A stretch of 64,000 bases of DNA from an uncultured Parachlamydiaceae bacterium (GTDB lineage: Bacteria > Chlamydiota > Chlamydiia > Chlamydiales > Parachlamydiaceae), in assembly GCA_963742415.1 (NCBI GenBank), contig CAVULX010000004.1, positions 832,001 to 896,000 on the forward strand, in the 5' to 3' direction. A model generated the notes under the pieces. That model did not search any database. It was given only the letters and a program-made list of their open reading frames with translations, and had not been told where the DNA came from. This document shows positions 7,584 through 62,400 of the stretch, piece by piece (the first letter of the stretch is position 1; each line of letters begins with the position of its first letter). The position numbers and the translations under genes are program-made.

Positions 7584-8912
7584 TCAGGATGTAAGGATCA
7601 TGTCGGCGAGTTCATTTGGATCGGCAGGTTGTATATCGGAAGTTAAACGGAAGTCTCGAGACAAATAGCCGATGGGGAAATTAGTTTCAAAGCAGAGGTT
7701 GATGATGCTCCCCCAAGAATGGCTCTCATCCAATTTAGTGAAAATAAGAGCTTCAGGATTCATTTTCCTATATGCCCTAATAACTTCAAGTCCATCTTCG
7801 GTCTTGGTATTGGCGCTGATAACAACAAATGTTTTTAGGTCTTCAACTAAATCAAAAGTATTTGAAATTTGATTTAAAGCTGTGCTTTGGTTGGCGGCAA
7901 ATCCTAGGCTGGGAGTGTCGATTAAAATTAAGTCAAATTCTTGATACTTATGAATAGCTTGTTGCAATTCTGGACTATCGGACGCAACACCTAAGGGGAT
8001 CCCCTGCTGATCGCAAAATGCCCTAAGTTGTTCCCCATTTCCCGGTTTATTCGTATTACAGACAACGATCGCTACCTTCCTCCGCAGGGTATGTTGATAT
8101 TGCAAGGCGAGCTTCATCACTGTTGTTGTTTTCCCACTGCCCGAAAGCCCTATAAAAGATGCAAGAGTGGGTGTTCCTTTCGCAATGCATATGGGACCGT
8201 AAGGGGTGATCAAAGCTGCAAGTTCTTTTTTTAACAAATCGTTTAAGAATCCTTCTTTTTGGGTCAATTCAGCAAAATTGATTTTCTCGATTAGCTTTTT
8301 TCGTAAACTGTTTAGAATCGCTTTCGATACCGAGGGAGCTAGCCCTTTTTTTGTCAGTTGAAAAAGAATTTTATGTTCAAGATCCCTTGCGCGCGCTTCA
8401 CCACTTTTTTGAATCCCTTCGATTATGTTGGCAGTAGGCGCAGACTTTGCATCGGCCCACTGCTCTTTGAATTCCGGTGTGTCATATTGATTCTGTAAAT
8501 TTTTCGTCAAACGTTTCAAGTTATCGATCAATGAAGGGATCGACGTTGCAACCATCGGCCTTTCAAGATTGTTTTTTTCCTGAGAACGGACGCTTTTCTC
8601 CTCGAGCCTTCGCCCAAATCGTGGATCTTGATAAGTTGTTTGGGAGTTTGATAAACTTTTGCCGTCTTTGCTCAGATTTTCGTCAGCTGGAACGATAGCT
8701 TTGGATCCACTTTTAGATTCCACAGCAGTTTCAGGAACCAGAAAATCATCGACTGCAGCCACCACTTCCACTTTATTTGAAAAGAATAAAGATTTTAGCC
8801 CTGTGAACTTAATTTGCCGTGAAGTTAAAATCACAGCATTTGGGCCTAATTCTTTTTTCACTAAATTTTCAATTTCATCAAAATTGCTTGCTAAATATCG
8901 TTTAACGATCAC
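7584..8912 (-). CDS. flhF: Flagellar biosynthesis SRP-type GTPase FlhF (divergent)
   Basis: FlhF-type N-terminus (MIVKRY...VKKELGPNAVILTSR...VEVVAA), P-loop GLSGSGKTTT, TKLDE; lies directly downstream of flhA. Confidence 0.85.
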   Translation of the reverse strand: MIVKRYLASNFDEIENLVKKELGPNAVILTSRQIKFTGLKSLFFSNKVEVVAAVDDFLVPETAVESKSGSKAIVPADENLSKDGKSLSNSQTTYQDPRFGRRLEEKSVRSQEKNNLERPMVATSIPSLIDNLKRLTKNLQNQYDTPEFKEQWADAKSAPTANIIEGIQKSGEARARDLEHKILFQLTKKGLAPSVSKAILNSLRKKLIEKINFAELTQKEGFLNDLLKKELAALITPYGPICIAKGTPTLASFIGLSGSGKTTTVMKLALQYQHTLRRKVAIVVCNTNKPGNGEQLRAFCDQQGIPLGVASDSPELQQAIHKYQEFDLILIDTPSLGFAANQSTALNQISNTFDLVEDLKTFVVISANTKTEDGLEVIRAYRKMNPEALIFTKLDESHSWGSIINLCFETNFPIGYLSRDFRLTSDIQPADPNELADMILTS

Positions 8913-8930: not shown

Positions 8931-11003
8931 CTAGATTGTAAGGACGTCCGCATTCACAATTCCAACCGTATTGACAGGAATATCGGAAGCAATTTCATAC
9001 ACAGACAAAACAGGCAATCTCGGCAAACTTCTTTCTATAAGCCTCTTAAAATAAGGCCTTAATGTTGGAGCTGTCAAAAAAATGGGCTGTTTTCCCTTTT
9101 GCATAGCAGATTGCAGCAGACCTTTCGTCTGATCAATTATTTTATTTACAGTGATGGGATTAGCAACAATGGTTTTGCCTAGCTCATTTTTTTGAATACT
9201 TTCTAAAAGGAGCTGCTCCACTTTAGGATCCATCATAATAACGTGAATCGATTCATCTTTGCCTACGTATTGCTTTGAGATCGACCTTGCTAGTCCCTGA
9301 CGAACATATTCCGTCAGCACGTCGGGATCTGTAGACCCTGAACTTTGATCGGCAAGGATTTCAAGGATGGAAACAATGTCGCGGATAGAGACTCTCTCCC
9401 GCAACAAATTTTGCAATACCCGCAAAATGTGTCCAAAGCTCAGTTTTCCAGGAATAAGTTCTGAAATAACAGCAGGAGCGCGAATTTTTGCATTGTCAAT
9501 AAGCTTGGCTACTTCCTGACGGTTCAATAATTCATTCGCGTGTAATCGAATTACTTCCATCAAATGTGTCGCAAATACTGTCAAGGGATCCGCAACAATA
9601 TAGCCATTGTTCAAGGCTGACTCTTTTTGTGAATTTTTAATCCATAAGGCGGACAAACCAAACGCCGGATCTTTCGTAGCGATCCCGTTAATCAATTGTC
9701 TGACAGTTCCAGGATTCATCGCTAGGCAGCTATCAAGGTAAAGATCTCCACGGGCCACTTCGTCCCCTTTAATTTTGACGAGATAGGAATGGGGGTTTAA
9801 ATTTAAATTATCGTGAATTCGAATAGATGGTACAACGACACCTAGTTCCGAAGCGATTTGCTGTCGGATCACCCCGATCCTTTTCAATAAATTCCCCCCC
9901 CTTTCGCTTTTGACAAGAGGCGTCAAGGCGTGTCCAAGTTCGATCTCCATAGGATCTATAAACAAAATTTTATCCATCTCTTCCATCTTTTTTCCTTGAG
10001 TATCAGCTTTGTTATTTTCTTGCAAAGCAGAAGCTTCTGCTTCATGGCGAAGGGAGTAGGCGTAAAGGAATAAGGTAGCTGCAATAGGAAAAATGACCAA
10101 AAAGGGCATTCCAGGTACAAGTCCTAAAAGGATTAATGTTGCGGCCGTGATGTTTAAGACCTTGGGATTATTAAAAAGTTGCTTCCGAAAAGACTCTGCC
10201 AGATTTTCTTTTGTTGAGGAACGTGTGACAATGATTCCGGCAGCGACAGAAACCAGCAATGCGGGAATTTGGGTGACAAGGCCATCCCCGACTGTTAAGG
10301 TGATGTATACATTCACGACTTGGTCCCAGCTCATCCCTTTCATGATCATACCGACAATGAATCCACCAAAAGTGTTGACGAGGATAATGACAATACCTGC
10401 AATGGCATCTCCGCGGACAAATTTGGATGCTCCATCCATGGCTCCATAAAAATCAGCTTCTGTCATAATTTTGTCGCGTCTAGCTTTGGCTTCATCCTCA
10501 TCGATCAACCCAGCATTGACGTCGGCGTCGATAGCTAATTGTTTTCCGGGTAAAGAATCAAGAGTGAACCGCGCAGCAACTTCAGCGACACGGCCGGATC
10601 CTTTGGTAATGACGATAAAGTTAATTCCCGTCAAAAGCATAAAGATGACAAAACCTACAAAAGCATTTCCCCCTGTGACAACATCTCCAAAGGTTTTAAT
10701 GATATAACCTGCATGGGCTTCGGTTAAAATCATGCGGGTCGTTGCAATATTTAATCCAAGTCGAAACAATGTCAAAAATAACAGAAAAGAAGGGAACGAA
10801 TTAAAGGAGAGGGCATCTTCACTATACAATGTCACCAGAAGGGCCAAGACAGAAATGAGGATGCTGGTCGTGATTAAGGAATCGAGGGCGAAATCATTCA
10901 GCGGAATAATTAAAAGGAGTAAAATGAAAATGACCGCACAAGCGAGAATAAGATCGCTATACCGCTTTGCCAAACCGATTTTTTGCGCTATAGTTGCCAG
11001 CAT
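8931..11003 (-). CDS. flhA: Flagellar export gate protein FlhA (FHIPEP family)
   Basis: RVAEVAARFTLDSLPGKQLAIDAD, FYGAMDGASKFVRGD, GDGLVTQIPALL, VLQNLLRERVSIRD. Adjacency to flhF favours flagellar FlhA over injectisome SctV. Confidence 0.9.
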   Translation of the reverse strand: MLATIAQKIGLAKRYSDLILACAVIFILLLLIIPLNDFALDSLITTSILISVLALLVTLYSEDALSFNSFPSFLLFLTLFRLGLNIATTRMILTEAHAGYIIKTFGDVVTGGNAFVGFVIFMLLTGINFIVITKGSGRVAEVAARFTLDSLPGKQLAIDADVNAGLIDEDEAKARRDKIMTEADFYGAMDGASKFVRGDAIAGIVIILVNTFGGFIVGMIMKGMSWDQVVNVYITLTVGDGLVTQIPALLVSVAAGIIVTRSSTKENLAESFRKQLFNNPKVLNITAATLILLGLVPGMPFLVIFPIAATLFLYAYSLRHEAEASALQENNKADTQGKKMEEMDKILFIDPMEIELGHALTPLVKSERGGNLLKRIGVIRQQIASELGVVVPSIRIHDNLNLNPHSYLVKIKGDEVARGDLYLDSCLAMNPGTVRQLINGIATKDPAFGLSALWIKNSQKESALNNGYIVADPLTVFATHLMEVIRLHANELLNRQEVAKLIDNAKIRAPAVISELIPGKLSFGHILRVLQNLLRERVSIRDIVSILEILADQSSGSTDPDVLTEYVRQGLARSISKQYVGKDESIHVIMMDPKVEQLLLESIQKNELGKTIVANPITVNKIIDQTKGLLQSAMQKGKQPIFLTAPTLRPYFKRLIERSLPRLPVLSVYEIASDIPVNTVGIVNADVLTI

Positions 11004-11169
11004 TGTTTCACAAAAGTGATTTGAAAATGTTTAATCTCGAATATTAGAATTATAGTAAAAAATTTAAATTCTCAATATAAATTTGCTGCTAGAGGAGGTA
11101 AAGAATTGTGTTATAAATAATTTTCCCTTTTTTCTTGAATGTGATATGGAAAAAGTAAAAACCTGAACT

Positions 11170-11586
11170 TTGGTTCAGGTTAAAAGGGTGAAAAGTTTTA
11201 TATTTATGCAAAATTTCGTTAAAAAATTTGAACTGGTTGTGGATGCGCTGGAAAAGTTTGGTCCGGTCCCCTTTTTTGGCCTTTTTGAAAGAGTGGATTC
11301 TACTGAAAAATGGGATGTCATTATCGGAGCTCCATGGTTAGATCCAGATGCCAGTCCATCGTTCAAATTGATTAATCTGGTGATCCAAAGATTTGTAAAA
11401 ACGGGGAGCCCAGAGACATTAACCCGTGTTGTGATCCTAAGAGAAGATAATCCTTTAGAAAAGTTGCTTCAAAATACATGGACAGGGAAAGGGTTGTTCC
11501 AACTTAAAGATACGAAAATTTTGGCAGAAATCTTCCCTTTCAAAATTAAATCGGCCTATCTCCTTAGATGCACAAAAAAGGATTAA
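11170..11586 (+). CDS. Hypothetical protein inserted antisense between flhB and flhA (likely ATG start at 11206)
   Basis: Globular-looking ORF filling the gap, with AT-rich upstream region 11004-11170. Confidence 0.65.
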   Translation: MVQVKRVKSFIFMQNFVKKFELVVDALEKFGPVPFFGLFERVDSTEKWDVIIGAPWLDPDASPSFKLINLVIQRFVKTGSPETLTRVVILREDNPLEKLLQNTWTGKGLFQLKDTKILAEIFPFKIKSAYLLRCTKKD

Positions 11587-11600
11587 AGAGCTTCAAACCT

Positions 11601-12665
11601 TTATTCTGAAGGTTTGAGCCCCATTAGGATATTTGCAACGGCGTGGTAGTGGTCTGGAGAGATATAATTTCCGTTGTCAATCGCCAAAAATATCGATTGC
11701 GCAAGTGCTGAATTTTTAACAACGGGGATCCCATACTTCCGTGCGGCTTCAAGAATAGCCGCCCCTCGGCGGCGGCTTCCTTTGCAAATGCAGATTGGAG
11801 CCCGCATGATTTTGGGATCATAAGCAATCGCAACCGCAAATTTCATCTCGTCGGCAATAACAACATCAGCTTGAGGCATATCTGCAATGCGGCTGACCTC
11901 AGCATAATTTCTCATCATTGTTCGAATTTTTATTTTGAGGTTTTGATCCCCCTCTAGTTGCTTCAACTCATCTTTGACTTCTCTGCGGGTCATTTTCATC
12001 TCACGCATAAAGCGCCATTTTTGAAAAAAATAATCGAGGATTCCAACACCTAGATAAGCAATGGAACATGCTATCCCTTGTATCAACCCTTTTTGGTAAA
12101 TGAGGGCGGAAATTTCTTTTGGGGTGGCCTTTCCGTAACTAAATACAACAAGACCATCGATTGCAATGACAAACCAAGATATGATCACCACTGCTTGTAA
12201 ACGAGTCAATCCAAATACCATCCGCATCATGGCAGGCAGTCCAAAATTTTTTTCATAGTTTGAAGGGTCAAAGAAATTTAATTTTTTTAACTTAGGCTTA
12301 AGTGGATAGAGAGTGAATAGCAGCCCGGTTTGCACGACATTGAATAAAATTGCCATGAAGACGGTACCGAAAAGGAGCGGCAATAAGATTTTTATTAGTT
12401 CGTATAACCCGTGATTGATATACCATGAGATCAAACTTATTTCCGCGAACTGCAGATCCATATTGATTAAGATCTGGACAAACATAAGTTTAAGATTGTC
12501 CATCATATAAGGGCCGAAAAAGAAAAAAATTGCCACCCCTCCTAAAAGCATTAAAGCCATGATCAATTCGTTTGACTTGGCAACAAACCCTTTTTTGCGC
12601 GCATCAGCTAACTTTTTAGGGGTTGGCTCTTCGGTTTTGCTGTGAAAATCTTCTGCCATAATCAC
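11601..12665 (-). CDS. flhB: FlhB/SctU-family export switch protein lacking NPTH
   Basis: KTEEPTPKKLADARKKG N-terminus, four TM segments, MKMTRREVKDELKQLEGD, ADVVI..FAVAIAYD...AP...KG. Confidence 0.88.
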   Translation of the reverse strand: MIMAEDFHSKTEEPTPKKLADARKKGFVAKSNELIMALMLLGGVAIFFFFGPYMMDNLKLMFVQILINMDLQFAEISLISWYINHGLYELIKILLPLLFGTVFMAILFNVVQTGLLFTLYPLKPKLKKLNFFDPSNYEKNFGLPAMMRMVFGLTRLQAVVIISWFVIAIDGLVVFSYGKATPKEISALIYQKGLIQGIACSIAYLGVGILDYFFQKWRFMREMKMTRREVKDELKQLEGDQNLKIKIRTMMRNYAEVSRIADMPQADVVIADEMKFAVAIAYDPKIMRAPICICKGSRRRGAAILEAARKYGIPVVKNSALAQSIFLAIDNGNYISPDHYHAVANILMGLKPSE

Positions 12666-39808: not shown

Positions 39809-39950
39809 ATTTCTGCAATAATTTGAAAGCCCTCATCTTTACACAATCTTTATTAAATTTTATTTAAAAATTAACATTTCAATTGTTGAAAACATTGAAA
39901 AAAAATGTTAAAATAATCTCCAAATAAATAATTTAATATTGATAATATTC

Positions 39951-42900
39951 ATGTTTGTTAACCCCCCAACACCTTATTCTCCTTCCGATCCTTCTCCCGA
40001 TTCCCCCCCTGATACGATGACTGAAAGCATCGGCATGCCGGTTTTTGGATCGCACAAGTTTTCTTTCGACCCTTCTATTAAAAATGAAAAGGCCAAACAA
40101 CTTTGGCAACTCATTCAAAATCACCGTAAATCAGATTCGCTCTTTTACACAGAAAGAGGGGTTATTGCTTACGCAATCGATAAGTTCTCCCGCTTTTTAA
40201 AATGGATCTTAAGAACTTCCCATATCGATGCCCTCGTGGAAAAACGGATCCAATTTGGCATGAATCTCTTTAGGAATTATGAATTTAATCTCTTCGGGCC
40301 AGGTTCTGAAAATTCGGCAGTCCCTGCTGGACATGATCTCCCTTTTTCAGTTGCACTTGAAGCTTATTGCCACTGCCTTGAAAAATATCCCATCAAAGAT
40401 TTTGGCTCGATTCAACCTTTGAAAGAGTGCCTTGAGTATGCTAAGAAAATTGAAAAGGCCAAAACTTTATCCGCTTCTTCCCGTGAAAGCTTATTAAAAG
40501 ATTTGGCTCAGCAACTTAAAGACAAAATAGCTCAACTTTCAAAAGATGAGACTCTATACATTCCCGGAGGCTTAATCGAATATGAGGGATTGAATGGTCT
40601 CTCAGAAAACATACAAGCCCTCACCTTTCGAAACAAAAAACTCAGAACAACCCATTTTTTCTTCGAGATCCGAAAACATCCTGATGAGGGCAAATTAATT
40701 TTTAGAATTTTCAATTATTCTAATCAGATCAACAAATTGGCCGGAAACAACGGAGCTCTGTTTCAAATTTTTGAAAATTTAGAAAACATCAGCGATCTCT
40801 TAGACCAAGCAAAGAAGGTTTTTCCTTTCATTGATGAGCTTGTGGAGCAGGCAAAAAAAACTCTTTCTAATGACTCCCAACTTTTAGAATATCATCTTGA
40901 TGAAAATGAATTGAGCTCTAATCTTTTTACCTTGTTACAGGTGCAAGCGACCCCTCACATCTCCCACAATATGGGATGGTGGAGTTCGTTTCAGTATCAT
41001 CGCGCTTTAGCTTCCCGTGTGATTAATTGGTTACATAAGGTTCAACCCTCTCCCCCCCAGCTCCAGCCAGCGCAAGAAAACACTTCTGTACAAGAACCTG
41101 AAGAGGGGTCATCATCATCGCACGAGCCTCAACAGGCCGCTTCTTTACAGTCTCAAGAAGGAACCTCTTCGGGCAAAATCGTGGGAAAAAGAGTGGAAGT
41201 TCAAGACATCGTAGGCCCGTTGGTGGAAGATCTGTCTATCACACAACTATCTACTTTTTTCGATCGGATTCGTCCCTATCAGTCTGCCAGTTCCACTCCT
41301 CCTGCCGCCTCCCCTTCTTCCAATGCCAAATGCAACAGCAAAACCGATCCTGTGAAATTATTAGAAATTTTCACGAAAGCAGTGCATCAAGAGGATCTTA
41401 CAGAGATAAAAATGCAAAAACTGATGTCTAAAACAGCTTTGTTTCTAGAATTATACGCTGAAGCTGAGACTAAGTTGGCATCTGATAGCAAAATGAGGAA
41501 GTGGATCAAAGATAATGCGATTAATTTACTTAAGGCGTATCTCCGCTATTTTGGATCTGATGCTGAAAAGAGTTCGGAGGACTTTAAACAGATTATCGGG
41601 TATTTCGAATCTATTGTTCACAAAATCGAAGAGGCTTCCCATCACGGTTTTATACTACCTGCAGAGCCGAACCATCAAAAACCCTTATCTACCGATTTTG
41701 ACAACTTGTTAGTTTTTGAAGGGATCCCTACACCTTTGGATGAATTTCAAACCCTAAGAAAGCCAACCTTATCCCTCCAAAAGCCATTGTGCGGGGGTAG
41801 ATTTTCATTAAATACTTTTAAATCATGGATAGAAACTTGCAATTCCCTATCGTCGCAAAAAAAGTTACACGATTTATACCTCATATTAGAAGATGTTTTC
41901 CATGCTCTTGAAAATGCTGATGCTCAAAAATTTTGGGACGACATTGCTTTGGAAGATCTAGAAGCTTGGAGTTCCGGGCTTGAAAAACTTTGTTTCTTTT
42001 CAGTGCAAGTTCACTTTGGCACATCTAAACCAGGCCCCTTGCCCAGATCTATTCTCAATCTAATTAAACTGCTTTGGCGCACTCAGTATTTAGCGCAACG
42101 GAACAATAAAGAAACCTGTTTTGGGAATTTTTCTTTGGATACGGATCAATTTAGAGACATTTTCCTCGATTCTTACTTGGATTTAGAAGCGGAGGGGCCT
42201 GAAATCAAAGAGGTTCTCAGCTATATTGAAGGCAGGGAGAACAAAACTACTGTCAACTTAACCGATTCTTCCTCCTTTAAAAATCAAGAAGAGAACGATA
42301 AGGCCTTCTTTGCTCTCTATCGAAAAGCACATCATATCCCTGAAGACTGTAAATACACTCCGCCAGAAGAAGATTTCGGCTCTCAATCGGGTCAGTTAGC
42401 TCCACAGACTATCCATTTGCGACGGATGAAAATAATGACGACAGCCTTGATGGCGAAACATCGCTGTTTGGGAAATCATAAAATTTTTAATCGGGCAAAA
42501 CAGTTCATCCAGTCGGCTATTTCTTTTTTAAGGCGACAGATTACTACCGATTTCGATACTGATTTAGATCGCGATTTAGCCCAAAGAGCCTTCGATCAAG
42601 TAGATTCTTTTCTAAAAAGGGGGGAACTAGCATGCACTTTTACAAAAAATACCTTTGCTCTTCATCGAAAACCTACTGTTAAAATCGAGGAATTAGGAGT
42701 AGACTTTTTTGATTACGTCGATACCGCCTACGTTGTGCGAGGCGCCACGCCCATTTCTCAATATAAAAAAACCGCTCAAGAAGTTCCTGCAAGTGTTGAA
42801 AAGCAAGTAGTCGAAGCTGTTGTCAGTAATGATTGTGATATACAAGATACATTCGTTGATGAAGAAGGAAAGGTGTTTTCCCAAACCGAACAGAATGGGA

Positions 42901-45900
42901 AAAAGCGGCGTTATAGCCCTCCCGGAGAACATCATACAGAAGGCACAATCGGGAACGACCACTTGGCTGAAATGGATTTGCCCCAAGATCATTATGCGGA
43001 ACTCAGATTGACGAAAACTTCTCCTTTGGGAACGAGGATCCCAAATACGCTTCAATTTCTCTACTGCCATCCCCAATACTTTAATTATTCAAAGCAAGGA
43101 TTAGCCCTTCAACGAATTATTAGCTTAAATCTTTTTCGCAATAATAATTTGCAAGAATTTTTACTGGCAGCACCTAACTATGCAACAACTTTGGTTAAAT
43201 TGCTACGGCTAGTTGGGAGGGTCATGCAATCGGCAAACAATCTGCAAGGCGTGCTTTTTTTAATGAAAGTTATACGGAATGTTTCCCAGATTGTAGATAC
43301 AATTCCCTCCATTGACAACGACGTCTTCGCTCAAATTGAGAAAGATCACTTTTGCATCCTTACCGATTGGCAACAGAATTGCGATGAAAAAAAAGAGCTA
43401 AAGCCCCATCGAAAATCGATTTATCAAACGTATTTGTTAACTCATGCCGAGCGCTTTCAAAGAAAATTTAAAGATCCCGCGTACGATCCCTCTAGCCACC
43501 AATCATTGCGTGCGGATACAGATACTTTATTAAATGTTTTGCACAGCCATTATTGTGCTCAAAGAATTCCTAAACCGATGCATGAAAGGAATCGCGCCCA
43601 TGAAGACAAAATTTCCTATATGATGCACCGCCTCTTTCCCGCTTGTGCTAAATTGTTGGCCGATCCGATCCTCCGAGATCCCTTTCTCAATAACTTAATC
43701 CCTTCAGAAAAAGGGCATTGGACCTCATGTGGAAATAACGACCTCTGTTTTATTAATGAAAACGATGTCTCTGTCGACCTCGTCAATGGGCTTTTATATA
43801 AGGAGGGCGTTGCCGAAAGTTATCTTCCCGATACGATTACACACGAATTATCTGCTGTGGTCCATTTTCATTTAGAGGAGATTCACGAAATCCCTTGCAA
43901 ACAACGGCCAGTCTTAAGAGATGGAAAAAAAGGGCAAATGTATGAGTTCGTTTACAGAAAACAGACTTACCGCATTGTTCTAATGCCTGGGCAAGAACAT
44001 CACATTTATAAATATATCGATCAACCGGGCAATCCTGCAAACTGGTATGAACTAAAAAGGACAATTTCCCTACCTGAAAAAGATCCTCTTTCATTCCTTG
44101 AAAATATGGTTGATTCCCGTTCAAAAGCGTTAAAAGAACTAGCTCAACAGGAAGAAACTAAAACCTTGCCAGATGAAATCCTTGCCAACAATTTTTGGAT
44201 CTCCCCCGATGGAAACCACTTTATCATCGAAAATGCTCAAGGGAACTATCTTTATCGTGGTGAATTTATCCCTTCAGATATCAGTAATTCAAGCCAACAA
44301 ACAAAATTCAATATTCAACACGCGACGAGAATTACAAGTTGTGCAGAGGAGTCTCAAACGTTGCTCAACCCTTGGCATCGGCCCGAATTCCTACGTTTTT
44401 TAGCCTTGGCAAATCCATCGCAAATCATGGTGTTAGGCCAAAAATATAAAGCTGAACAGATCAAATATTTGAATCAAGACTTAGAATATGCTTGGAACAA
44501 TGCTGAAAGTCGTTGGGATTGCAAAACGCTTCCAGGTTATTGGCTCTCTTTAGCCTCATTTGACGATATTATGAATCGTAACAAAGCTGAAAATGAGCAC
44601 CTCCATTTGTTTGACAATAGCTTTACAGATTATCAAATATTGGAACACAAGAGCAAACCTCCCCGCCTCTTGCTGATGGGAACTCAACTTAACCGCTCGA
44701 CTTCATCGAACCGAGATGAATACATCACGAAGTACAATCGAAAAAAAATTGCGGCCAACCATAGCGAAACAGCTTCCATTCAATATCAATATGAAATCGA
44801 CCCCCTTTCCGGTCTTAAAGCCTCTTCTCAAGAGGAATATTTATACTTAGTTTACACCTTCCTAGTTCAATCCAGATTTGATGTGGCTTTATTCTATCTG
44901 GACAAAGCCCAAAATATTAAGCCAGGCAAATCGTCTGAATGTGACAGAATCCTCCAATTAATTGAGAATTGGGTAGAGCGTTCTAAGTCTCCTTCCGCAC
45001 GTGCAGTTTTTTTACAAATACAAATTCTAGTTTTAAGCCAAGTCAAAAGATTTGGTGCCCATCAGTATGAACAAATGCATAAAATTCTCGAAAATCTGGA
45101 CAAATATGCTGATCTCGTTAGCACATGTCAAATAGACCCTCGTCTCCAACTCTCCAGTAAACAACAGGCTCAACTTGATTTGTATAAAGCAAAAATAACA
45201 TCTGAAAACAATCGAGAGCAATATCAATCTCTTGCCAATAGCCTGGGGGAGGTTGATTTAGAAAAAATCACGAACGCATTGGCTGTTATTAACAGTGCAA
45301 GCAAAAAAAACAAAGCGAAAATAGACAAAGAAACAATCAAACTTAAGAAAGAGATCGAGGATCTAAAAAAAGAGATATCCTCGGCCTCAGATGCAATTCA
45401 ACGACAACCTTCTAAGAATTTACCAAAACCTGATCATTTATTTCCTGATTTTGAAAAATATTTGACTTGTGGAACTCAGTTGCATTTGGTTAGAGGGGAA
45501 ACGACAACAACGGAAAATGTGCAATTCAATAAAAACAATATGGACTTTTTAGAAGCCATTGATAAACTGAAACAGCAGAAGACCGTCGATCCATTTGAAA
45601 AAGAATTGTTAGAAGAACTTGTCAACGATATTAATATCGCCGCCTCCAACCAAAATGAAGATAAAAATGTCTTAAATGATTCTGTAAACCTAGACGAAAT
45701 AAAAGAATCGCTCACCGATTATGCAAACGCGCTTGAAGAGGCAGCAATAATAGCAAGACAGAACATTCTCACTAAACTAAGTTTTGGAATTCCTCCTGAT
45801 TCTAAACTTGAAAGTGTACTAAAAAAGTTACAAGAATATCCGGCGACTCAAGAACGAAACTTTAGGCGCATTTTAATGAGCTGCGCCAATGGGGACTGGA

Positions 45901-48900
45901 AGGATCTCGAAAAGGAAAAAATCGTTTTAAACCAAGATATCGAAGAAATTAAAACAATTGCAAGCGATTATTTAGTTCGCAAAACAAAGCTCAATCAATA
46001 TAAAAAAGCGATCGCACACATCGATGATTTCGAAAAAACTAAATTGCATATACACCTTGCAAGATTAGGGGAAATTTTAGCCATTAAACGTCACTATGAC
46101 CCCTACAAAGATCCTAACCGCTTTTCCCTTCTGTTACTTGAAGATCACCAGCAAGTCATTATCAAGAAAGATCAACTCGATCACTACATCATCAATCAAC
46201 ACTGGCCGAACCTCTTTTCCCATGAGCCGCTGGCAAGTGGAAAAACTTCGATTTTGCGCCATTTAGATGCCGACATCCATGCAGATGGCTCTCATATAGC
46301 CGGAATTACAACAGATGATGCTTTGATTGGACAACATCATCCGTTATTAGAAAGCACAACACTTGAGGCGTACAATAAACTAGCCGACCGGTTTGAATTT
46401 AGCAGAGAAAGCGATAGCTCGGCCTTAGCTTTACGCATTTTGTATCGCAATTTATTAAAAATCATTCCCGAACGGGGACGTCTAGATTTCACAAAGCGGG
46501 ATTTCTTAAGTCTCCACCATCTCAGTTTTCAAAAACTTCGGGAGCTCGAACTTAAGTTGCGCCCGGAAGATGAAATCCATGAGGAACTGGATATCCTTGC
46601 CGACATCTACGAACTAATTAAAGAAAAGTTGCGCGTAGGAACAGATGAGATGGACCAAGTAACAAACCCCACCATTGAACACAATTGGGGCATTGGAACA
46701 ACCCCTTTAAAGCTTGACGAAAAAAAATGTGAAATCGCCCTCCTTCTCATGGAATGGACATTAGAAAACGAAACTTATAAGGATTTATTCACCAAAGGAA
46801 ATCAATTTAAGCTGGCCTCCGACCCAAAAAAATATCTAGAGTATTTGGCGAACCGCGCCTGCGGTCATTTTAAATTGGACACAAGACTAACAGATACGGT
46901 CATCGATTATTTTACTTCCCACTTTGATCAGAAACAAAACATGAAATATGTAATCGATTTTTATGAGGATCATATTAAAACTCACCAAGAAAAAGAAAAA
47001 CTTGTTTACCTTTACAAATTCCTGCAATCGGTCGTCCCCCATTCACTTTCTAAAAGAAACGGAGCTCGTTTTATGCGCTCCACAAAAGATCATATGACCG
47101 TCAAGCCCACCTTGAAAAATGCCTCTTACAATGAGCTTTCGGAACATTGTTCCGAGGAAGAACTAGCCTGGTATACCTGTGTGAATTATATGCATTCCGA
47201 AAAACAAAAGCAGGGTCAGGGAGGTGTGACCACAGACCAAATTGCACACCTTGTCCTCAACGCAAAAAATCAAGCTTCGATAGAGTTGATGAACTCTATT
47301 AACATAGATGAAAACCCTATTGATTTTAGAGATACAAAAGAGGCCAAAGCTTTTTACAAGGATTTCAAGTTGCACCTTGACAAGGTCATGGAAGATGATT
47401 ATGCCAAAATTGCAGATGAAATTAACCAATCCCCCCAAAAGCTCTCTGCATTTATTGAGAGTCGTGTTTTCCCCCTCATTGAACTCAGAGCCGAAAAATT
47501 CACCGGTAACACGCAGCATTTCGTCAATATGTTCAACCAATTTTATGGGTCATCCGGAACGTCCAACAGCTATCGAGCTCTCCCTGACAAAGTAGTTAAA
47601 ATTAAAGGTGACAACAAAGATCCAGAAGATTTCTCCCCAGCAAAAAAGAGGGGTGTCGATGGAGCAGTCCTATTAGCATTATTGAAAGATTTCAAAGATG
47701 AAGATCTGTTGTGTTACGATGATAACAAAGAAATTTTACCTCAAATTAGCGAGCGCTTGACACCAGGATCGATGTTCATCGACCTAGCCCCTGTATTTCC
47801 TGGGTTAAATGCAAAAGAGATCGCCCATGACCTTGCAGCCCATTTGCCAAAGGCTAAGTTCCGCTACCTCAATGAATTAGACCAAGCCGTCATTTTAGAT
47901 TCAAATACCGGTGAAGAAAGACCGGCCCATCAAAACGACGACCTTGAAACAGTGATGACAATCCTCTCAAAAGACCAAGAACGGGGAACCCACCTTGAGA
48001 TGGCTCCCGAAGCTATTGGATTTCCTACCGTCAACAGCAACACGACTTTGACAGAGTTTCAACAGGCCATCATGCGCATGCGCAGGCTAGGACGAGGGCA
48101 AAAGGTAAAAATTTTGATTGCAGAGGATACATTTAAATGCTTAGAAGAGCCAAAGGTAGCACAACTGATCCTTTTATTAGTTAAAAACGAAATCAAAAGC
48201 CTTAAGCAGCACCACACCAAGGCTGAAAGGGAGAAAATCTTGGCACTGGCTCAGTGCAATATCTCTGATGTTTTGTGCACATTGAAAGATCGGCAGTTGC
48301 GCTTGCCGATTTGGATTGAATCTAAAGGTTATTTTGCCCACAAAACTCAAGAGCGAATTGAAACAGACGAAGATCTGGATTATATGGGTAAACCTCGACC
48401 CGAGATCTCAGGTTATGACGACCTCATGGAACTCATCTCATTGGAAAAAGGGAAAATCAAGAAATTTGAGAAAAAGATTTCCAATCTTAAAAACAAAAAT
48501 TTAAAAAAGCTTCATCATAATCTAGCTGAAGCCAAAGCAAAACTCAAAGAAAAAGCTAACAACGAGGTCACAGCAGCCAAATATCTTCTTTCTTCCGTAG
48601 ACAGTCGTCATCACAATCTGGGGATGCAAAGCCAAATGCAACATGAGCATGAAGCTGTGAAAGAACAAGACCAAGAACAAGAACAATTTCAAGAACAGTT
48701 TGAAACTCTTGTAAGAAATGCTGAAAGATACCTAGGAAAGCCCTGGGAGGATCTCGGAATTAAAAGCATTGATGATATAATTAAAATGACAAAAGGAAAA
48801 AACTCAAATGCATTGAGCCAATTAAACGATCAAGTTTCCGAGAGTGAACTAAATGATCAAATTAAAGACTCTTCTAAAAGAATTTCATATTCTTTTTATG

Positions 48901-49427
48901 ATGACAATATTTTTGTAACAAAAAATATCTGCCCTTTGGAAAGAATGTATCTTTATAGAACCGTCATTGTTGTAGATAAAACGAAAAATGGAAAAGACGC
49001 CGTCACTTGTGTGGCCGGTAGTTTAAAAGACTTCGATAATGTCTTTAATGGAATCAATCCTAAAAATGACCGGTACGATTATTACATTTTTAATTTGTGG
49101 TACGATCAACTGGAAAGGCATCAAACAAAATGGAAAAAGTATGAAAAAACTACTGAGAAAGCCATAGTCCGCGCCATTGTCCAAATGAAACACCTTGCAG
49201 GTGCAATCGTTCTGACCGAATTCAATAACAAAGATGCTCCCCCAATTTTCCGCCAAAAATCAGTCCTCATCAAATGGCTTCACGAATTAAAAGTCATACG
49301 TCAGCTTAACCTCAAAAACTTAGAAGACCTCCAAAAAAAGTACTTAACCACTATGCGCCCCACCAATTTTGCTTCCTATCAAACAAGCTCTATGCGGGAA
49401 GCCTATCGGCTAGCTTCTAAGGTCTAA
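39951..49427 (+). CDS. Giant (~3158 aa) protein with degenerate SF2-helicase-like C-terminal region (DUF3638-like); putative effector
   Basis: Uninterrupted 9.5-kb ORF; P/S-rich N-terminus; ASGKTS, TDEMD, SGT, RGTHL, QAIMRMRRLG, then a Q/E-rich tract. Confidence 0.7.
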   Translation: MFVNPPTPYSPSDPSPDSPPDTMTESIGMPVFGSHKFSFDPSIKNEKAKQLWQLIQNHRKSDSLFYTERGVIAYAIDKFSRFLKWILRTSHIDALVEKRIQFGMNLFRNYEFNLFGPGSENSAVPAGHDLPFSVALEAYCHCLEKYPIKDFGSIQPLKECLEYAKKIEKAKTLSASSRESLLKDLAQQLKDKIAQLSKDETLYIPGGLIEYEGLNGLSENIQALTFRNKKLRTTHFFFEIRKHPDEGKLIFRIFNYSNQINKLAGNNGALFQIFENLENISDLLDQAKKVFPFIDELVEQAKKTLSNDSQLLEYHLDENELSSNLFTLLQVQATPHISHNMGWWSSFQYHRALASRVINWLHKVQPSPPQLQPAQENTSVQEPEEGSSSSHEPQQAASLQSQEGTSSGKIVGKRVEVQDIVGPLVEDLSITQLSTFFDRIRPYQSASSTPPAASPSSNAKCNSKTDPVKLLEIFTKAVHQEDLTEIKMQKLMSKTALFLELYAEAETKLASDSKMRKWIKDNAINLLKAYLRYFGSDAEKSSEDFKQIIGYFESIVHKIEEASHHGFILPAEPNHQKPLSTDFDNLLVFEGIPTPLDEFQTLRKPTLSLQKPLCGGRFSLNTFKSWIETCNSLSSQKKLHDLYLILEDVFHALENADAQKFWDDIALEDLEAWSSGLEKLCFFSVQVHFGTSKPGPLPRSILNLIKLLWRTQYLAQRNNKETCFGNFSLDTDQFRDIFLDSYLDLEAEGPEIKEVLSYIEGRENKTTVNLTDSSSFKNQEENDKAFFALYRKAHHIPEDCKYTPPEEDFGSQSGQLAPQTIHLRRMKIMTTALMAKHRCLGNHKIFNRAKQFIQSAISFLRRQITTDFDTDLDRDLAQRAFDQVDSFLKRGELACTFTKNTFALHRKPTVKIEELGVDFFDYVDTAYVVRGATPISQYKKTAQEVPASVEKQVVEAVVSNDCDIQDTFVDEEGKVFSQTEQNGKKRRYSPPGEHHTEGTIGNDHLAEMDLPQDHYAELRLTKTSPLGTRIPNTLQFLYCHPQYFNYSKQGLALQRIISLNLFRNNNLQEFLLAAPNYATTLVKLLRLVGRVMQSANNLQGVLFLMKVIRNVSQIVDTIPSIDNDVFAQIEKDHFCILTDWQQNCDEKKELKPHRKSIYQTYLLTHAERFQRKFKDPAYDPSSHQSLRADTDTLLNVLHSHYCAQRIPKPMHERNRAHEDKISYMMHRLFPACAKLLADPILRDPFLNNLIPSEKGHWTSCGNNDLCFINENDVSVDLVNGLLYKEGVAESYLPDTITHELSAVVHFHLEEIHEIPCKQRPVLRDGKKGQMYEFVYRKQTYRIVLMPGQEHHIYKYIDQPGNPANWYELKRTISLPEKDPLSFLENMVDSRSKALKELAQQEETKTLPDEILANNFWISPDGNHFIIENAQGNYLYRGEFIPSDISNSSQQTKFNIQHATRITSCAEESQTLLNPWHRPEFLRFLALANPSQIMVLGQKYKAEQIKYLNQDLEYAWNNAESRWDCKTLPGYWLSLASFDDIMNRNKAENEHLHLFDNSFTDYQILEHKSKPPRLLLMGTQLNRSTSSNRDEYITKYNRKKIAANHSETASIQYQYEIDPLSGLKASSQEEYLYLVYTFLVQSRFDVALFYLDKAQNIKPGKSSECDRILQLIENWVERSKSPSARAVFLQIQILVLSQVKRFGAHQYEQMHKILENLDKYADLVSTCQIDPRLQLSSKQQAQLDLYKAKITSENNREQYQSLANSLGEVDLEKITNALAVINSASKKNKAKIDKETIKLKKEIEDLKKEISSASDAIQRQPSKNLPKPDHLFPDFEKYLTCGTQLHLVRGETTTTENVQFNKNNMDFLEAIDKLKQQKTVDPFEKELLEELVNDINIAASNQNEDKNVLNDSVNLDEIKESLTDYANALEEAAIIARQNILTKLSFGIPPDSKLESVLKKLQEYPATQERNFRRILMSCANGDWKDLEKEKIVLNQDIEEIKTIASDYLVRKTKLNQYKKAIAHIDDFEKTKLHIHLARLGEILAIKRHYDPYKDPNRFSLLLLEDHQQVIIKKDQLDHYIINQHWPNLFSHEPLASGKTSILRHLDADIHADGSHIAGITTDDALIGQHHPLLESTTLEAYNKLADRFEFSRESDSSALALRILYRNLLKIIPERGRLDFTKRDFLSLHHLSFQKLRELELKLRPEDEIHEELDILADIYELIKEKLRVGTDEMDQVTNPTIEHNWGIGTTPLKLDEKKCEIALLLMEWTLENETYKDLFTKGNQFKLASDPKKYLEYLANRACGHFKLDTRLTDTVIDYFTSHFDQKQNMKYVIDFYEDHIKTHQEKEKLVYLYKFLQSVVPHSLSKRNGARFMRSTKDHMTVKPTLKNASYNELSEHCSEEELAWYTCVNYMHSEKQKQGQGGVTTDQIAHLVLNAKNQASIELMNSINIDENPIDFRDTKEAKAFYKDFKLHLDKVMEDDYAKIADEINQSPQKLSAFIESRVFPLIELRAEKFTGNTQHFVNMFNQFYGSSGTSNSYRALPDKVVKIKGDNKDPEDFSPAKKRGVDGAVLLALLKDFKDEDLLCYDDNKEILPQISERLTPGSMFIDLAPVFPGLNAKEIAHDLAAHLPKAKFRYLNELDQAVILDSNTGEERPAHQNDDLETVMTILSKDQERGTHLEMAPEAIGFPTVNSNTTLTEFQQAIMRMRRLGRGQKVKILIAEDTFKCLEEPKVAQLILLLVKNEIKSLKQHHTKAEREKILALAQCNISDVLCTLKDRQLRLPIWIESKGYFAHKTQERIETDEDLDYMGKPRPEISGYDDLMELISLEKGKIKKFEKKISNLKNKNLKKLHHNLAEAKAKLKEKANNEVTAAKYLLSSVDSRHHNLGMQSQMQHEHEAVKEQDQEQEQFQEQFETLVRNAERYLGKPWEDLGIKSIDDIIKMTKGKNSNALSQLNDQVSESELNDQIKDSSKRISYSFYDDNIFVTKNICPLERMYLYRTVIVVDKTKNGKDAVTCVAGSLKDFDNVFNGINPKNDRYDYYIFNLWYDQLERHQTKWKKYEKTTEKAIVRAIVQMKHLAGAIVLTEFNNKDAPPIFRQKSVLIKWLHELKVIRQLNLKNLEDLQKKYLTTMRPTNFASYQTSSMREAYRLASKV

Positions 49428-59493: not shown

Positions 59494-62400
59494 TTAAGCT
59501 GTTTCTACAGCGGAAGCCGAGGACCTTGCTTCAGGGGCTGGATAGTGCCTCACGAGCGCATCAAGCCCGTTATAGACGAAGTTAGCGTTGATCGGAGTAT
59601 TGATTTCATCTCTAACCCTCTGAGCATTCTGTCCTACACTGCTCTCTACCTTGCCAAAAATCCATCCGATTAACGGCCTTAGCAACCAGCCAAATAGAGT
59701 TCCTATGATGCTATGCTCTAACCAAGCCAAAACTTTGGTTTTAGCTTTTACTGGGATTTCTTTGGCTTCGGTCGTAACCTTTGCGTTGTTCACTTGGTCA
59801 TTCGTTGCTGTGTTGTTCTTGTCATCCAGGATTTCAGCTTGCGTTACTGGGGCTTTTTTATCTAGATCTGGTTCTAAGGCTGCAGCTCCCTTAAAAATTC
59901 CAAAAGCCACAATCTTAGAAAGGGGCCAATCTTTCAACGCATCCTTTATAACAGGTTCCAAGTTTTTCGCAGGCAATGATCCCACTTTAGGTAAATGGGT
60001 CAACTTAGGAAGTAAATTTGTAGCCATCGTCGGCGGCAATACCCCACATAACACATTGATCAGCCGTGTCAGTCTTTGCTGATTTTGTAATTGCTTTTGT
60101 AATGCAGCATCCGTCAATGGTTGCGCAGGCCCCGCAGGGGGTACAGTGGGATTGTTAGCAGCTGCTGACAAACTAGTGTTGATATTTTCCAATATCCCTG
60201 CAACCAGAATTTTATCGATCATTTCCGGAGTACCCAACATTCCAAGAACTGAAGATAATGCATCGGGTATTGCTGTTTCTGTAATGAGCTTCCAAACCTC
60301 TTTTTCTAATTCATAAGGCACTTTTAAGTCTTGAGGACCATTTTTTCCGGCAACTTTCAATAACCACATTCCCAAATCTTTGTAAAAGGCTTTTTTGGCC
60401 TCTTCATTGTACATTGCGAAATGTAAAGCTGCAGCATCTCTGAAACCATTTTTCATTATGCCAGCCTCCACTTGATTCATCAATTGGTGGGGTGGATTAA
60501 GATCTCTTACTTTTTCAAGATGTCGAGCGAGCAATTCAACTAATTCAAGAGTCAAATCGAACATTTTTTCAGGATTTTGCTCTTCCATCGTTTTAAGATT
60601 GCCTGTAAGATTATCTAAAATCTCTAATAGTTGCCCATAGATCTCTTTTTGCAGGATCGGGAACAGAAATTCTCCTGATTTTGGAACAACTTTTCCAATT
60701 TCACCCATATGGTTGTTGCCAGGTATGCGTTCTAAATGATGACCCTGGAAATCGAGTCCTTGCTCAATTAGATCGGCAATTTCTACGCTGTTAACAACCA
60801 AAAAGTTGTCTAATTTTTTCACGGCAAAGGCTGCCAAATCCTTCACGGCTTTCGACAGGGTCTTATCCGGCTTTTGTGGGTCTAGGTTCGGGAATCGAAG
60901 GTTTAAACTTCCCTTATGCTTTATTCTAGAGCGATAGGCCTTGCTCGTCTCAATGTATGACTCCAAGATAAGCCCAGTCACCTCATCGTCAAGAAGAGCT
61001 TTTAAAGGTGCTGGGAAAGCTTCAGGGTCATATCCCATCCCTTTTAATACCGCTGTTACCAAAGGCTTAAATTGTCCTTTTAATTGTTGATATTCTTCTA
61101 TTATGACTTTTTTACCCTCTATTTTTTTCCGTTTTTCAGATAGTTGTATTTGATCCTGTGTCAATTCTTTAATCGTTTCTTCTACTTGTTTTTTCTCATT
61201 TTCTTTAGTTAGCTTCTCATCTCCCTCAGGAAGACGTTCTAATTCTTGAGTTAGACGGCCTAAATCTTGAGTTAATTTTGATATGTGTGCGCTATTAGCT
61301 TGTGAAAATGCATCGTTTTCATTCAGTTTATCAATATAACGTTGAAGTGAAATCTTGCTTTCAATAACTTTCATCTCTTCGATAAGTTTTTCATCTTCAG
61401 TAGCTTTCACTTTTAACTGATTTTCTACTCGTACCTTCTGTTCACCTTCAGAGAGACTCTCTTTTGTTTTATAGAGGTTCAACATCTCTTTTCGATTTCT
61501 GTTTATTTCCGCTTTTTTATCATTTAATTGTTTAATATATTTGCCGTTGTTGTCTAAATACTTAGTTATTTTATTCAACATCGCTTTATTTTTATTGTCG
61601 ATCGTTTGCTCGGAAATAATTTTGCGGATTTGCAATAAAGCGTTAGCTAAAGCATCTCCCTTTTCAGGTCCTGCTGCAGCTAGATGTAATAATCCATTTT
61701 TAATGATGATGCTGATCAAGCCTTTTGCTCCACCCAAAAACTGGTCGCAATTTCCGGCTTTCAGGGCTTCAAATAATTGGTTTAAATTGTCTGCTAAAAA
61801 AGCTTCTTCGAGACCGGTCAGCGTTCCCCCTACAGCCTTTTGATTAATTAGCATAGCCAAAACTGGGGCTTTCCCTTGGACAGCTTCCAACCCTTTCGGC
61901 AACCCCATTTCTATAGCTTGGTCGACGATTCGTGAAATATCTTTATCTGAAAGCTTCGCGATTACTCGGTTTTCTTCACTTGTGAACTTAAGGGGAACTA
62001 GGGGCATCACATAATCACATACAACGTTAAAAATTACATTGGGCAGAATAGAACTTTGCAAATCATCTTTCAGGCTGGCTTTCAAGTTTTCAGGCAAGGT
62101 GATCTGATCAAAATCTACTTGGGCGAGCAGCGCTCTCATAGTAGGTTCAAAAATCTTCAGCAACTCAACCTTTTTGACTTCTTTTGCCCGCTTTTCTTCT
62201 TCTGTGGTCTCAGCCATAGCCTTCCATTCGGCAATTTGTTCAAGCAATCGAGGTTCAGTTACATTTGCGCCCACGATTTGAAGAAGATGTTGAATTCCAT
62301 CTTCTAAAAGTTTAGCTTTTTGGCCTGCAGGTCTTCCTGGTTTGTTAACAGCTAAGTTGGCAAGAAGATGAAGGATATTGTATTGAATTAAAGGGAGAAC

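Follow-up and report, generated by a model that had tools for sequence, protein, structure and literature searches.

A flagellar-type FlhB lacking the Asn-Pro autocleavage site in an uncultured Parachlamydiaceae genome: probable gate subunit of a single-mode exporter

The window analyzed here is a stretch of 64,000 nucleotides from an uncultured Parachlamydiaceae bacterium (assembly GCA_963742415.1, contig CAVULX010000004.1, positions 832,001 to 896,000), which carries an flhB-type gene followed downstream by flhA and an flhF-like gene (Table 1). The flhB product is FlhB, the gate subunit in a type III export apparatus of flagellar type, and the N-P-T-H autocleavage motif with its scissile Asn-Pro is absent from it; the sequence at that place reads D-E-M-K. 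We consider this protein to be probably the intact and uncleavable gate subunit of a flagellar-type exporter that has a single export mode and no axial structure, in which the substrate switch became superfluous and then drifted. The genome holding the window is referred to as G000 (2.69 Mb in 4 contigs, 84% complete), and G215, G347 and G404 denote the other genomes that encode an FlhB without Asn-Pro (NP-less).

The flhB open reading frame (ORF) begins with GTG. The true start is probably the ATG at position 12659, as relatives begin at the third codon of the 354-residue frame; it gives a protein of 352 amino acids, the length of the database copy. The Pfam family PF01312 (Bac_export_2; FlhB/HrpN/YscU/SpaS) spans the whole protein with E = 4e-87 and a score of 293 bits (cut-off 24.4); residues 9-348 align with profile positions 2-333 of 335. 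Among the NCBIfam models FlhB scores best (260.1 bits) and SctU second (230 bits), both under their own cut-offs. The closest solved relatives are FlhB chains at 130-141 bits; SpaS scores 72 bits. Tree grouping and the flhA and flhF neighbors identify the protein as a flagellar FlhB rather than an injectisome SctU. The AlphaFold2 (AF2) model, with a mean predicted local distance difference test (pLDDT) value of 76.7 and 85-89 in the C-domain, predicts a helical N-terminal membrane domain and an α/β C-domain of the FlhB-C fold. Foldseek searches with this model returned uncleaved EscU, YscU and CT091 mutants as top matches (target template modeling (TM) scores of 0.83-0.93), EscU/YscU/CT091/FlhB C-domains at target TM scores of 0.69-0.93, and a match of the membrane part to the FlhB of 6s3l.

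The reverse complement of the four motif codons is GAC GAG ATG AAA. HMMER alignments to the solved FlhB chains 8z5s, 6s3l and 36hu place DEMK opposite N-P-E/T-H without gaps, and the loop flanks are kept, with ADV(V/I)(I/V) before and (F/Y)(A/S)VA(L/I).Y after the loop. In the AF2 model DEMK forms the turn that joins β1 (268-272) and β2 (276-281). Re-reading of the DNA thus returned DEMK at 11841-11852, where the original prediction had placed it, and the alignments to solved chains and homologues bear out its statement that all four motif residues are replaced between conserved flanks. Cleavage of FlhB takes place between Asn269 and Pro270, and the N269A mutant is deficient in late-substrate export (PMC7911332, in the part available). 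Cleavage together with FliK is described as needed for the switch to late substrates in the accessible portions of PMC7911332 and PMC4183434; the latter also states that mutation of the cleavage site leaves only rod and hook subunits exported. The Asn that the known cleavage chemistry requires is missing from the window protein.

The loss of the motif extends well beyond this genome. Among the 26 nearest full-length homologues in the database, which are 36-54% identical, Asn-Pro is absent in 23, with loops that include DADN, DCDK, QGER, DGSM, EKAR, SGDK, QPGH and DPFGH, and the other three have NP[IV]H; a 27th match, P0028, ends before the loop and stands outside this count. When 1.84 billion cluster representatives were queried with a profile of 24 NP-less sequences, 149 of the 150 top-ranking ones inspected had a readable loop. 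Asn-Pro is present in 131 of these 149, in 82 of them as exactly NPTH. The motif had been called near-invariant beforehand; this stands for Asn-Pro and holds less well for the His at the fourth position, since NPTE, NPTF, NPTQ and NPTR occur. In a 69-row tree, 16 of the 18 representatives without Asn-Pro lie inside the chlamydial group or branch at its base, and the remaining two, with the loops SPRE and DSEH, come far down the match list and lie outside that tree.

A 46-row FlhB tree was calculated with the motif columns removed, leaving out P0003 (identical to the G215 protein) and the truncated P0028. All 25 NP-less rows form one clade with a Shimodaira-Hasegawa-like approximate likelihood ratio test (SH-aLRT) support of 100, a stem of 0.58 and one state change, neighboring the chlamydial FlhBs with NP[VIT]H. 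In the 69-row tree, in which the outgroup is not monophyletic and three rows have long branches, a single clade (SH-aLRT 93) takes in 38 of the 40 NP-less rows, and at least two changes are required; an EEDR row is unresolved at the clade base and an NDIH row lies among NP-bearing sequences. The sequences and trees indicate that Asn-Pro was lost on the stem of a chlamydial FlhB clade, as an old, clade-wide trait. The search for other NPTH-less homologues and their gene neighborhoods that had been proposed for this locus yielded essentially one clade, with the flhB-flhA-flhF order conserved in G000, G347 and G404. The NDIH row is the metagenomic protein P0133, in which Pro is replaced by Asp and which groups with the NP-bearing FlhBs of flagellated chlamydiae; judged from its sequence, it is possibly a separate and recent loss of the cleavage site. 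A pattern scan of genome contigs with the FlhB alignment kept 80 loci, all from other phyla at 28-36% identity and none a close relative; the patterns were generic and this result was not used.

What was kept and what was lost within the clade is unevenly distributed along the protein. The flhB frames are open and of full length in all four NP-less genomes and in all aligned metagenomic clade members. Twenty-four clade members share 34 invariant columns at a mean column identity of 55%, and conserved positions include the N-terminal KTE..T, the linker M.M.RRE.K.E.KQ.EGD, Y282, P290, A308 and A344. Constraint was compared between 39 NP-less clade members and 152 NP-bearing FlhBs, groups that are defined by the motif, which makes the comparison circular for the NP group at the first two columns of the loop. 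The loop columns of the 39 NP-less members have no consensus (entropies of 2.3-3.3 bits), position 1 being D in 17, E in 8, N in 4, Q in 3 and S in 3, and position 2 being G in 12, P in 6 and A in 5. Just upstream of the loop, R258, M259 and M260, found in 136, 134 and 106 of the 152 NP-bearing proteins, are lost in the NP-less group, and the alanine of the A-K-G strand (149 of 152) becomes C, A or F. According to PMC4183434, FlhB-CC carries a hydrophobic substrate-docking pocket, and a basic patch that binds FliK adjoins the cleavage site. The pocket equivalents are kept in the NP-less clade as A289 (26 of 39), P290 (39 of 39), A344 (39 of 39) and L347 (30 of 39), and the window protein has all four. 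The corresponding Salmonella residues are presumably A286, P287, A341 and L344. These patterns in the protein alignments point to purifying selection on the membrane domain, linker and docking pocket of NP-less FlhB and to drift of the loop and R-M-M segment; at the 38-54% protein identity of the available genome pairs, synonymous sites in flhB are saturated.

Twelve chlamydial genomes with a flagellar-type FlhB were compared for gene content, four NP-less (loops DEMK in G000, DCDK in G215, EGVH in G347 and DGVR in G404) and eight NP-bearing, with the loop NP[VIT]H. The Pfam rod/hook C-terminal domain Flg_bbr_C has 3-6 matches in each of the eight NP-bearing genomes and none in the four NP-less ones. 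Flagellin_N is above cut-off in 8/8 and 0/4, with one sub-threshold match of 17.9 bits in G000. G404 was covered for these two families only, so that for all others the NP-less set is G000, G215 and G347. FliK (Flg_hook) exceeds the cut-off in 8/8 NP-bearing and 0/3 NP-less genomes, a 20.5-bit match lying within a 3,934-residue frame of G215; Pfam FliE likewise in 8/8 and 0/3. FliG_C scores 124-132 bits in all eight NP-bearing genomes, has no match in G000 and G215, and is separate and weak (38.8 bits) in G347. FliM scores 139-192 bits in the eight, 52-54 bits in G215 and G347, and has no match in G000. Pfam searches of the 84% complete G000 assembly detected no Flg_bb_rod, Flg_bbr_C or Flg_hook and no supra-threshold Flagellin_N. 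Genes that would make up a flagellar organelle are thus not detected, namely those for rod, hook, ruler and filament in G000 and the torque-generating C-terminal domain of FliG in G000 and G215. That no filament is built, as the original prediction had suggested, agrees with the absence of detectable flagellin in G000.

The missing FliM and FliN of G000 are a different matter. The fliM and fliN genes adjoin ileS in G215 and G347, and a tblastn search of the G000 assembly with the G215 isoleucyl-tRNA synthetase (IleRS) found no IleRS, the sole match being a valyl-tRNA synthetase (ValRS) paralogue at 22% identity. Loss of FliM/FliN from G000 was rejected because the neighboring, essential ileS is missing as well, which indicates an assembly gap; the ileS-fliM-fliN region is probably unassembled. 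The G000 ValRS itself appears to be encoded in two overlapping ORFs, one catalytic and the other carrying the anticodon-binding/C-terminal arm, which could be due to a frameshift, a sequencing error or a real split.

Hidden Markov models (HMMs) specific to the clade were built for FliE, FlgB, FlgC, FlgG and two neighboring genes from the eight flagellated chlamydial genomes and searched against 28,256 six-frame G000 ORFs of at least 40 amino acids. FlgB, FlgC and FlgG returned nothing (best E values of 0.26, 5.8 and 1.2), while leave-one-out controls scored 181, 257 and 428 bits, respectively. The FliE model gave one match (E = 1.3e-15), to an ORF of 110 amino acids that directly adjoins ung. 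The order in flagellated relatives is ung-flgB-flgC-fliE; in comparison, flgB and flgC were apparently cut out and fliE kept. The G215 genome has the equivalent gene. Both proteins contain the C-terminal helix of FliE and score just under the Pfam cut-off of 22.4 (17.1 bits in G000, 21.8 bits in G215), with an 8-residue deletion relative to chlamydial FliE. The FliE profile was applied to G000 only, and the G215 gene was compared with its result. In flagellar systems, FliE is exported first and belongs to the rod-type substrates. The original prediction had proposed that the system may export only early-class substrates; of these, the divergent FliE is the only recognizable one left, and the system is no flagellum halted at the hook stage, as FlgB, FlgC, FlgG, rod/hook C-terminal domains and FliK are undetectable. 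A 131-residue ORF downstream of the FliE-like gene was considered as a system-specific chaperone and dropped, because its 277 relatives are widespread (two are named, as chlamydial/Waddliaceae).

The flagellar-type genes of G000 lie in three clusters, flhB-flhA-flhF; fliO-fliP-fliQ-fliR followed by csrA and a YbjN-family gene; and fliF, fused to a FliG N/M-like segment, with fliH, fliI and fliJ. The FlhA product passes the NCBIfam FlhA model TIGR01398 (821 bits, cut-off 772), and the FlhF-like GTPase of the signal recognition particle (SRP) type reaches 132 bits with the FlhF model TIGR03499, below its cut-off of 174; an flhF-like gene follows flhA also in G347, G404 and G215. G000, G215 and G347 share the gene order of the fliOPQR-csrA-ybjN and fliF-fliH-fliI-fliJ clusters, flanks included. 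The flhBAF cluster stands beside marC-marC-truA-HTH-rnhB in G000, in G347, which belongs to a different family, and in G404; in G215, flhA-flhF is relocated beside recD2-PLD, the other flank of the window cluster. This synteny of operons and flanks across families favors vertical descent over recent transfer. Identities of G000 proteins to those of G215 and G347 are 75% and 61% for FlhA, 74% and 66% for FliP, 70% and 72% for FliI, 47% and 43% for FliF, 54% and 38% for FlhB, and 33% and 25% for FlhF. The 659-residue FliF-FliG fusion of G000 contains YscJ_FliF, YscJ_FliF_C and FliG_M and lacks the FliG C-terminal torque domain; it is common to G215 (L128), and fliF and fliG are separate in G347 and the eight flagellated genomes.

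Several smaller features accompany these clusters. In G347 and G404, flhB and flhA abut; in the window they are separated by a spacer with an ORF on the opposite strand, which has four relatives, three of them at 57% identity, and no Pfam or NCBIfam family match. A further spacer lies between fliH and fliI of G000, where G215 has a gap of 24 bp. The possibility that these two AT-rich spacers are copies of one mobile element was rejected, as they do not resemble each other and neither has a significant match in the rest of the genome. The csrA and YbjN-family genes directly after fliR are kept in G215 and G347, which lack flagellin. In other bacteria, flagellin is the usual CsrA target. The window also contains two giant ORFs, one of them running off its end, and a 3,070-residue ORF directly follows flhB in G215.

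Table 1 Features at the flhB locus and elsewhere in the genomes compared (C and L prefixes denote positions outside the window numbering).
Feature	Position	Strand	Remarks
flhF-like gene, SRP-type GTPase	7584..8912	minus	442 aa; downstream of flhA; Pfam SRP54 GTPase
flhA	8931..11003	minus	690 aa; downstream of flhB; Pfam FHIPEP, E = 4e-253
flhB-flhA spacer	11004..11600		597 bp; 34% G+C (window 41.8%)
ORF in flhB-flhA spacer	11170-11586	plus	126-138 aa
flhB-type gene, FlhB gate subunit	11601..12665	minus	354 aa from GTG
Codons for D272-E273-M274-K275	11841..11852	minus	Direct reading; gap-free alignments; model secondary structure
Giant ORF	39939-49427	plus	3,162 aa
Giant ORF	59494-63999	minus	>1,492 aa
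FliF-FliG N/M fusion, G000	L009:8394-10373 = C3:402397-404373	minus	
fliH-fliI spacer, G000	L009:7022-7695 (C3:401022-401695)		674 bp; 32% G+C
csrA and YbjN-family gene, G000	L008:7547-8325 = C4:197547-198325	minus	
FliE-like gene, G000	C3:445382-445726 = L165:4379-4711	minus	FliE HMM match
FliE-like gene, G215	L166:4241-4576	plus	Equivalent position; 67% identity to G000 copy
ValRS ORFs, G000	L144:6713-8584 and L144:8395-9573 = C4:794713-797573	plus	
ORF after flhB, G215	L133:8770-17982		3,070 aa

G000 has a second member of the FlhB/SctU family, an SctU with the canonical NPTH, VVTNPTHIAVAIGY, whose gene adjoins the SctV gene and ychF; it matches the window FlhB with 107 bits only. Paired homologues FliP/SctR and FliF/SctJ are present in the same genome, as is an SctL paralogue. 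In a sample of 400 scored genomes of the phylum, an FlhB/SctU-family match occurs in 387 and a flagellar-type FlhB (at least 224 bits) in only 11. The window's own family has a flagellar-type FlhB in 3 of 73 genomes, and the G347 family in one of three. Family f4, presumably the Chlamydiaceae, is represented by 29 small genomes with a single match each at SctU-level scores. Several SctU proteins of family f3 (L115, L118, L123, L124 and L126) have NP[HTVK]D at the loop, keeping Asn-Pro and replacing His by Asp.

From sequence, phylogeny, gene content and synteny we infer the following course of events, in which the absence of cleavage, the export activity and the cargo are the conjectural parts. 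Asn-Pro was lost on the stem of the chlamydial FlhB clade, and FliK, the rod proteins (FlgB/C/G), the hook and the flagellins are missing too in the genomes examined. In the known autocleavage reaction the Asn side chain cyclizes and the Asn-Pro bond is thereby broken, which should be impossible without the Asn. FlhB-C would then stay a single chain, as in engineered N269A-type mutants that export early (rod/hook-type) substrates only. With no two substrate classes left to order, the switch loop and the neighboring R-M-M segment could drift freely, while purifying selection would persist on the membrane domain wrapping FliPQR, on the linker and on the hydrophobic docking pocket. The remaining apparatus would consist of FliOPQR, FlhB, FlhA, FliH/I/J, the FliF-FliG N/M fusion, FlhF and the divergent FliE, joined by the FliM/FliN found in the sister genomes, and most likely exports in a single mode, FliE being the only substrate recognizable. 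The switch appears superfluous because the scissile pair, the FliK ruler and every late substrate are missing together, and what stays is the gate with its docking pocket, the ATPase, the MS ring, FlhF and a single early substrate. It is better described as obsolete than as deliberately locked, since the loss of the motif is old, clade-wide and accompanied by the loss of the whole axial structure.

Several points weigh against this interpretation. The lack of autocleavage is deduced from the missing Asn-Pro, that is, from primary structure, and the protein lies below the 349.25-bit cut-off of the NCBIfam FlhB equivalog TIGR00328 with its 260.1 bits. As the genomes are kin and the NP-less sequences one clade, the split of four against eight is not twelve independent observations and amounts to essentially one transition, a co-occurrence that gives no order of losses. 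Absences in G000 are weak alone at 84% completeness and lean on G215 and G347 (96% complete each) and on G404 (98% complete, 7% contaminated). The retained parts diverge fast, as seen for FliM and for FliE below the Pfam cut-off, and further axial proteins, if strongly diverged, may have gone undetected by Pfam; the clade-specific profiles covered FliE, FlgB, FlgC, FlgG and the two neighbors, on G000 only.

Other explanations differ in what they make of the same parts. The NP-less FlhB, perhaps with other flagellar-type components, may plug into the chlamydial injectisome as a non-switching gate subunit at some developmental stage, following the proposal made for the FliI, FlhA and FliF paralogues of Chlamydia. 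The full-looking injectisome gate of G000 (a canonical SctU beside SctV and ychF) together with its SctJ, SctL and SctR paralogues would permit such an arrangement, the accessible text of PMC2830194 reports protein interactions between the flagellar and type III secretion sets in Chlamydia pneumoniae, and an equivalent model is discussed by Collingro et al. in the available section of PMC5604735. Set against it is a complete and separate flagellar-type gate (FliOPQR, FlhA, FlhB) with ATPase complex, MS-ring protein and FliE; such a set, encoded separately and retained together with its gene order in different families, speaks for an assembly of its own, and we regard the plug-in model as unlikely. 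Continued splitting or switching by other means, be it another self-cleavage chemistry, a protease or a conformational switch without cleavage that orders two substrate classes, is very unlikely. Pro or His is kept in several loops of the clade (QPGH, HPGK, DPFGH, SPTH, EGVH), and for an injectisome homologue it has been argued that cleavage creates a competent conformation and is not itself the signal (PMC4620466, in the portion available); however, the 39 members have no loop consensus, unlike a conserved catalytic or recognition site, and the switching trigger FliK is not above the Pfam cut-off in any of the three NP-less genomes searched.

Whole-gene relaxed selection, with flhB as a decaying remnant heading for loss, is highly improbable. 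Flagellar flhB has indeed been lost already in most chlamydiae, as the survey above shows, and FlhB is more diverged than FlhA, FliP and FliI of the same genomes. Yet the frames are open and of full length, the invariant columns and the residues of pocket, linker and membrane domain are conserved, synteny crosses families, and most of the variability falls on the switch loop and the residues immediately preceding it. Simple decay, which the original prediction had named as an outcome that would overturn it, is accordingly unsupported by the intact ORFs of four genomes, the 34 invariant columns and the conserved neighborhood. An assembly or sequencing artefact at the motif has next to no probability: four consecutive in-frame codons differ, independent assemblies and metagenomes have lost the motif with different residues, and an error is excluded because the loss is clade-wide. 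A more far-reaching form of the single-mode reading is possible, though doubtful. In it, the flagellar core of a lineage of environmental chlamydiae (FliPQR-FlhB-FlhA gate, MS ring, FliHIJ ATPase and FliE cap, with FlhF determining its placement) would have turned into a second, non-flagellar secretion device with a single export mode, and its FlhB would be the first natural switch-less member of the FlhB/SctU family.

Comparison with known systems places the window FlhB closest to engineered proteins. Non-cleavable Salmonella FlhB(N269A), EscU N262A/P263A, YscU N263A and the inactive CT091 mutant share with it the missing Asn-Pro, the fold and the predicted single-chain C-domain. The window protein differs in being natural, old and clade-wide, in having all four loop residues and the upstream R-M-M replaced, and in belonging to a system without detectable FliK or late substrates, where nothing would be left to switch. 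The FlhB of the flagellated, mostly marine chlamydiae (Collingro et al. 2017, PMC5604735, as far as available) is the sister group in the tree and likewise a paralogue alongside an injectisome SctU; it keeps NP[VIT]H in genomes with rod, hook, FliK, FliE, FliG-C, FliM and flagellins. The cryptic FliI, FlhA and FliF paralogues of the Chlamydiaceae (Stone et al. 2010) resemble the G000 set as export parts in a non-motile chlamydia without axial structure. According to the accessible part of that paper (PMC2830194), the remnant comprises three proteins and no FlhB; the G000 set is much larger and includes FlhB, FliOPQR, FliE, FliH, FliJ and FlhF. The flagellar basal bodies of Buchnera aphidicola are comparable as an export machine and basal body without motility in an intracellular bacterium, and they are described as keeping basal-body structural proteins (PMC8109811, in the text available), whereas rod and hook genes are undetectable in G000. 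The SctU (CdsU) of G000 shares the Pfam family and fold and differs by its canonical NPTH and its sctV/ychF neighbors. In the searched literature on chlamydial flagella, FlhB autocleavage and endosymbionts, including part of the supplements of PMC8242063, neither a natural nor a chlamydial FlhB lacking NPTH is described; a supplement of that paper mentions 'semicomplete to complete' sets.

The consequences concern both the FlhB/SctU family and the chlamydiae. To our knowledge, autocleavage at NPTH has been regarded as a defining trait of all FlhB/SctU proteins, and only engineered mutants have been used to study its role. Here a natural clade of at least 38 diverged sequences has long been without the cleavage site and has kept the rest of FlhB, including the docking pocket, so that gate function would have been separated from switch function by evolution rather than by mutagenesis; the pattern also points to the R-M-M segment as part of the switch module. 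If the core is indeed a second secretion device, it would represent a step parallel to, and independent of, the one from which injectisomes arose, and a natural demonstration that autocleavage serves substrate ordering only and not gate function. For the chlamydiae, the NP-less genomes define an intermediate stage of flagellar reduction, with the fully flagellated marine lineages on one side and the three-gene Chlamydiaceae remnant on the other, and they offer a testable system for the role of cryptic flagellar export machines in intracellular bacteria.

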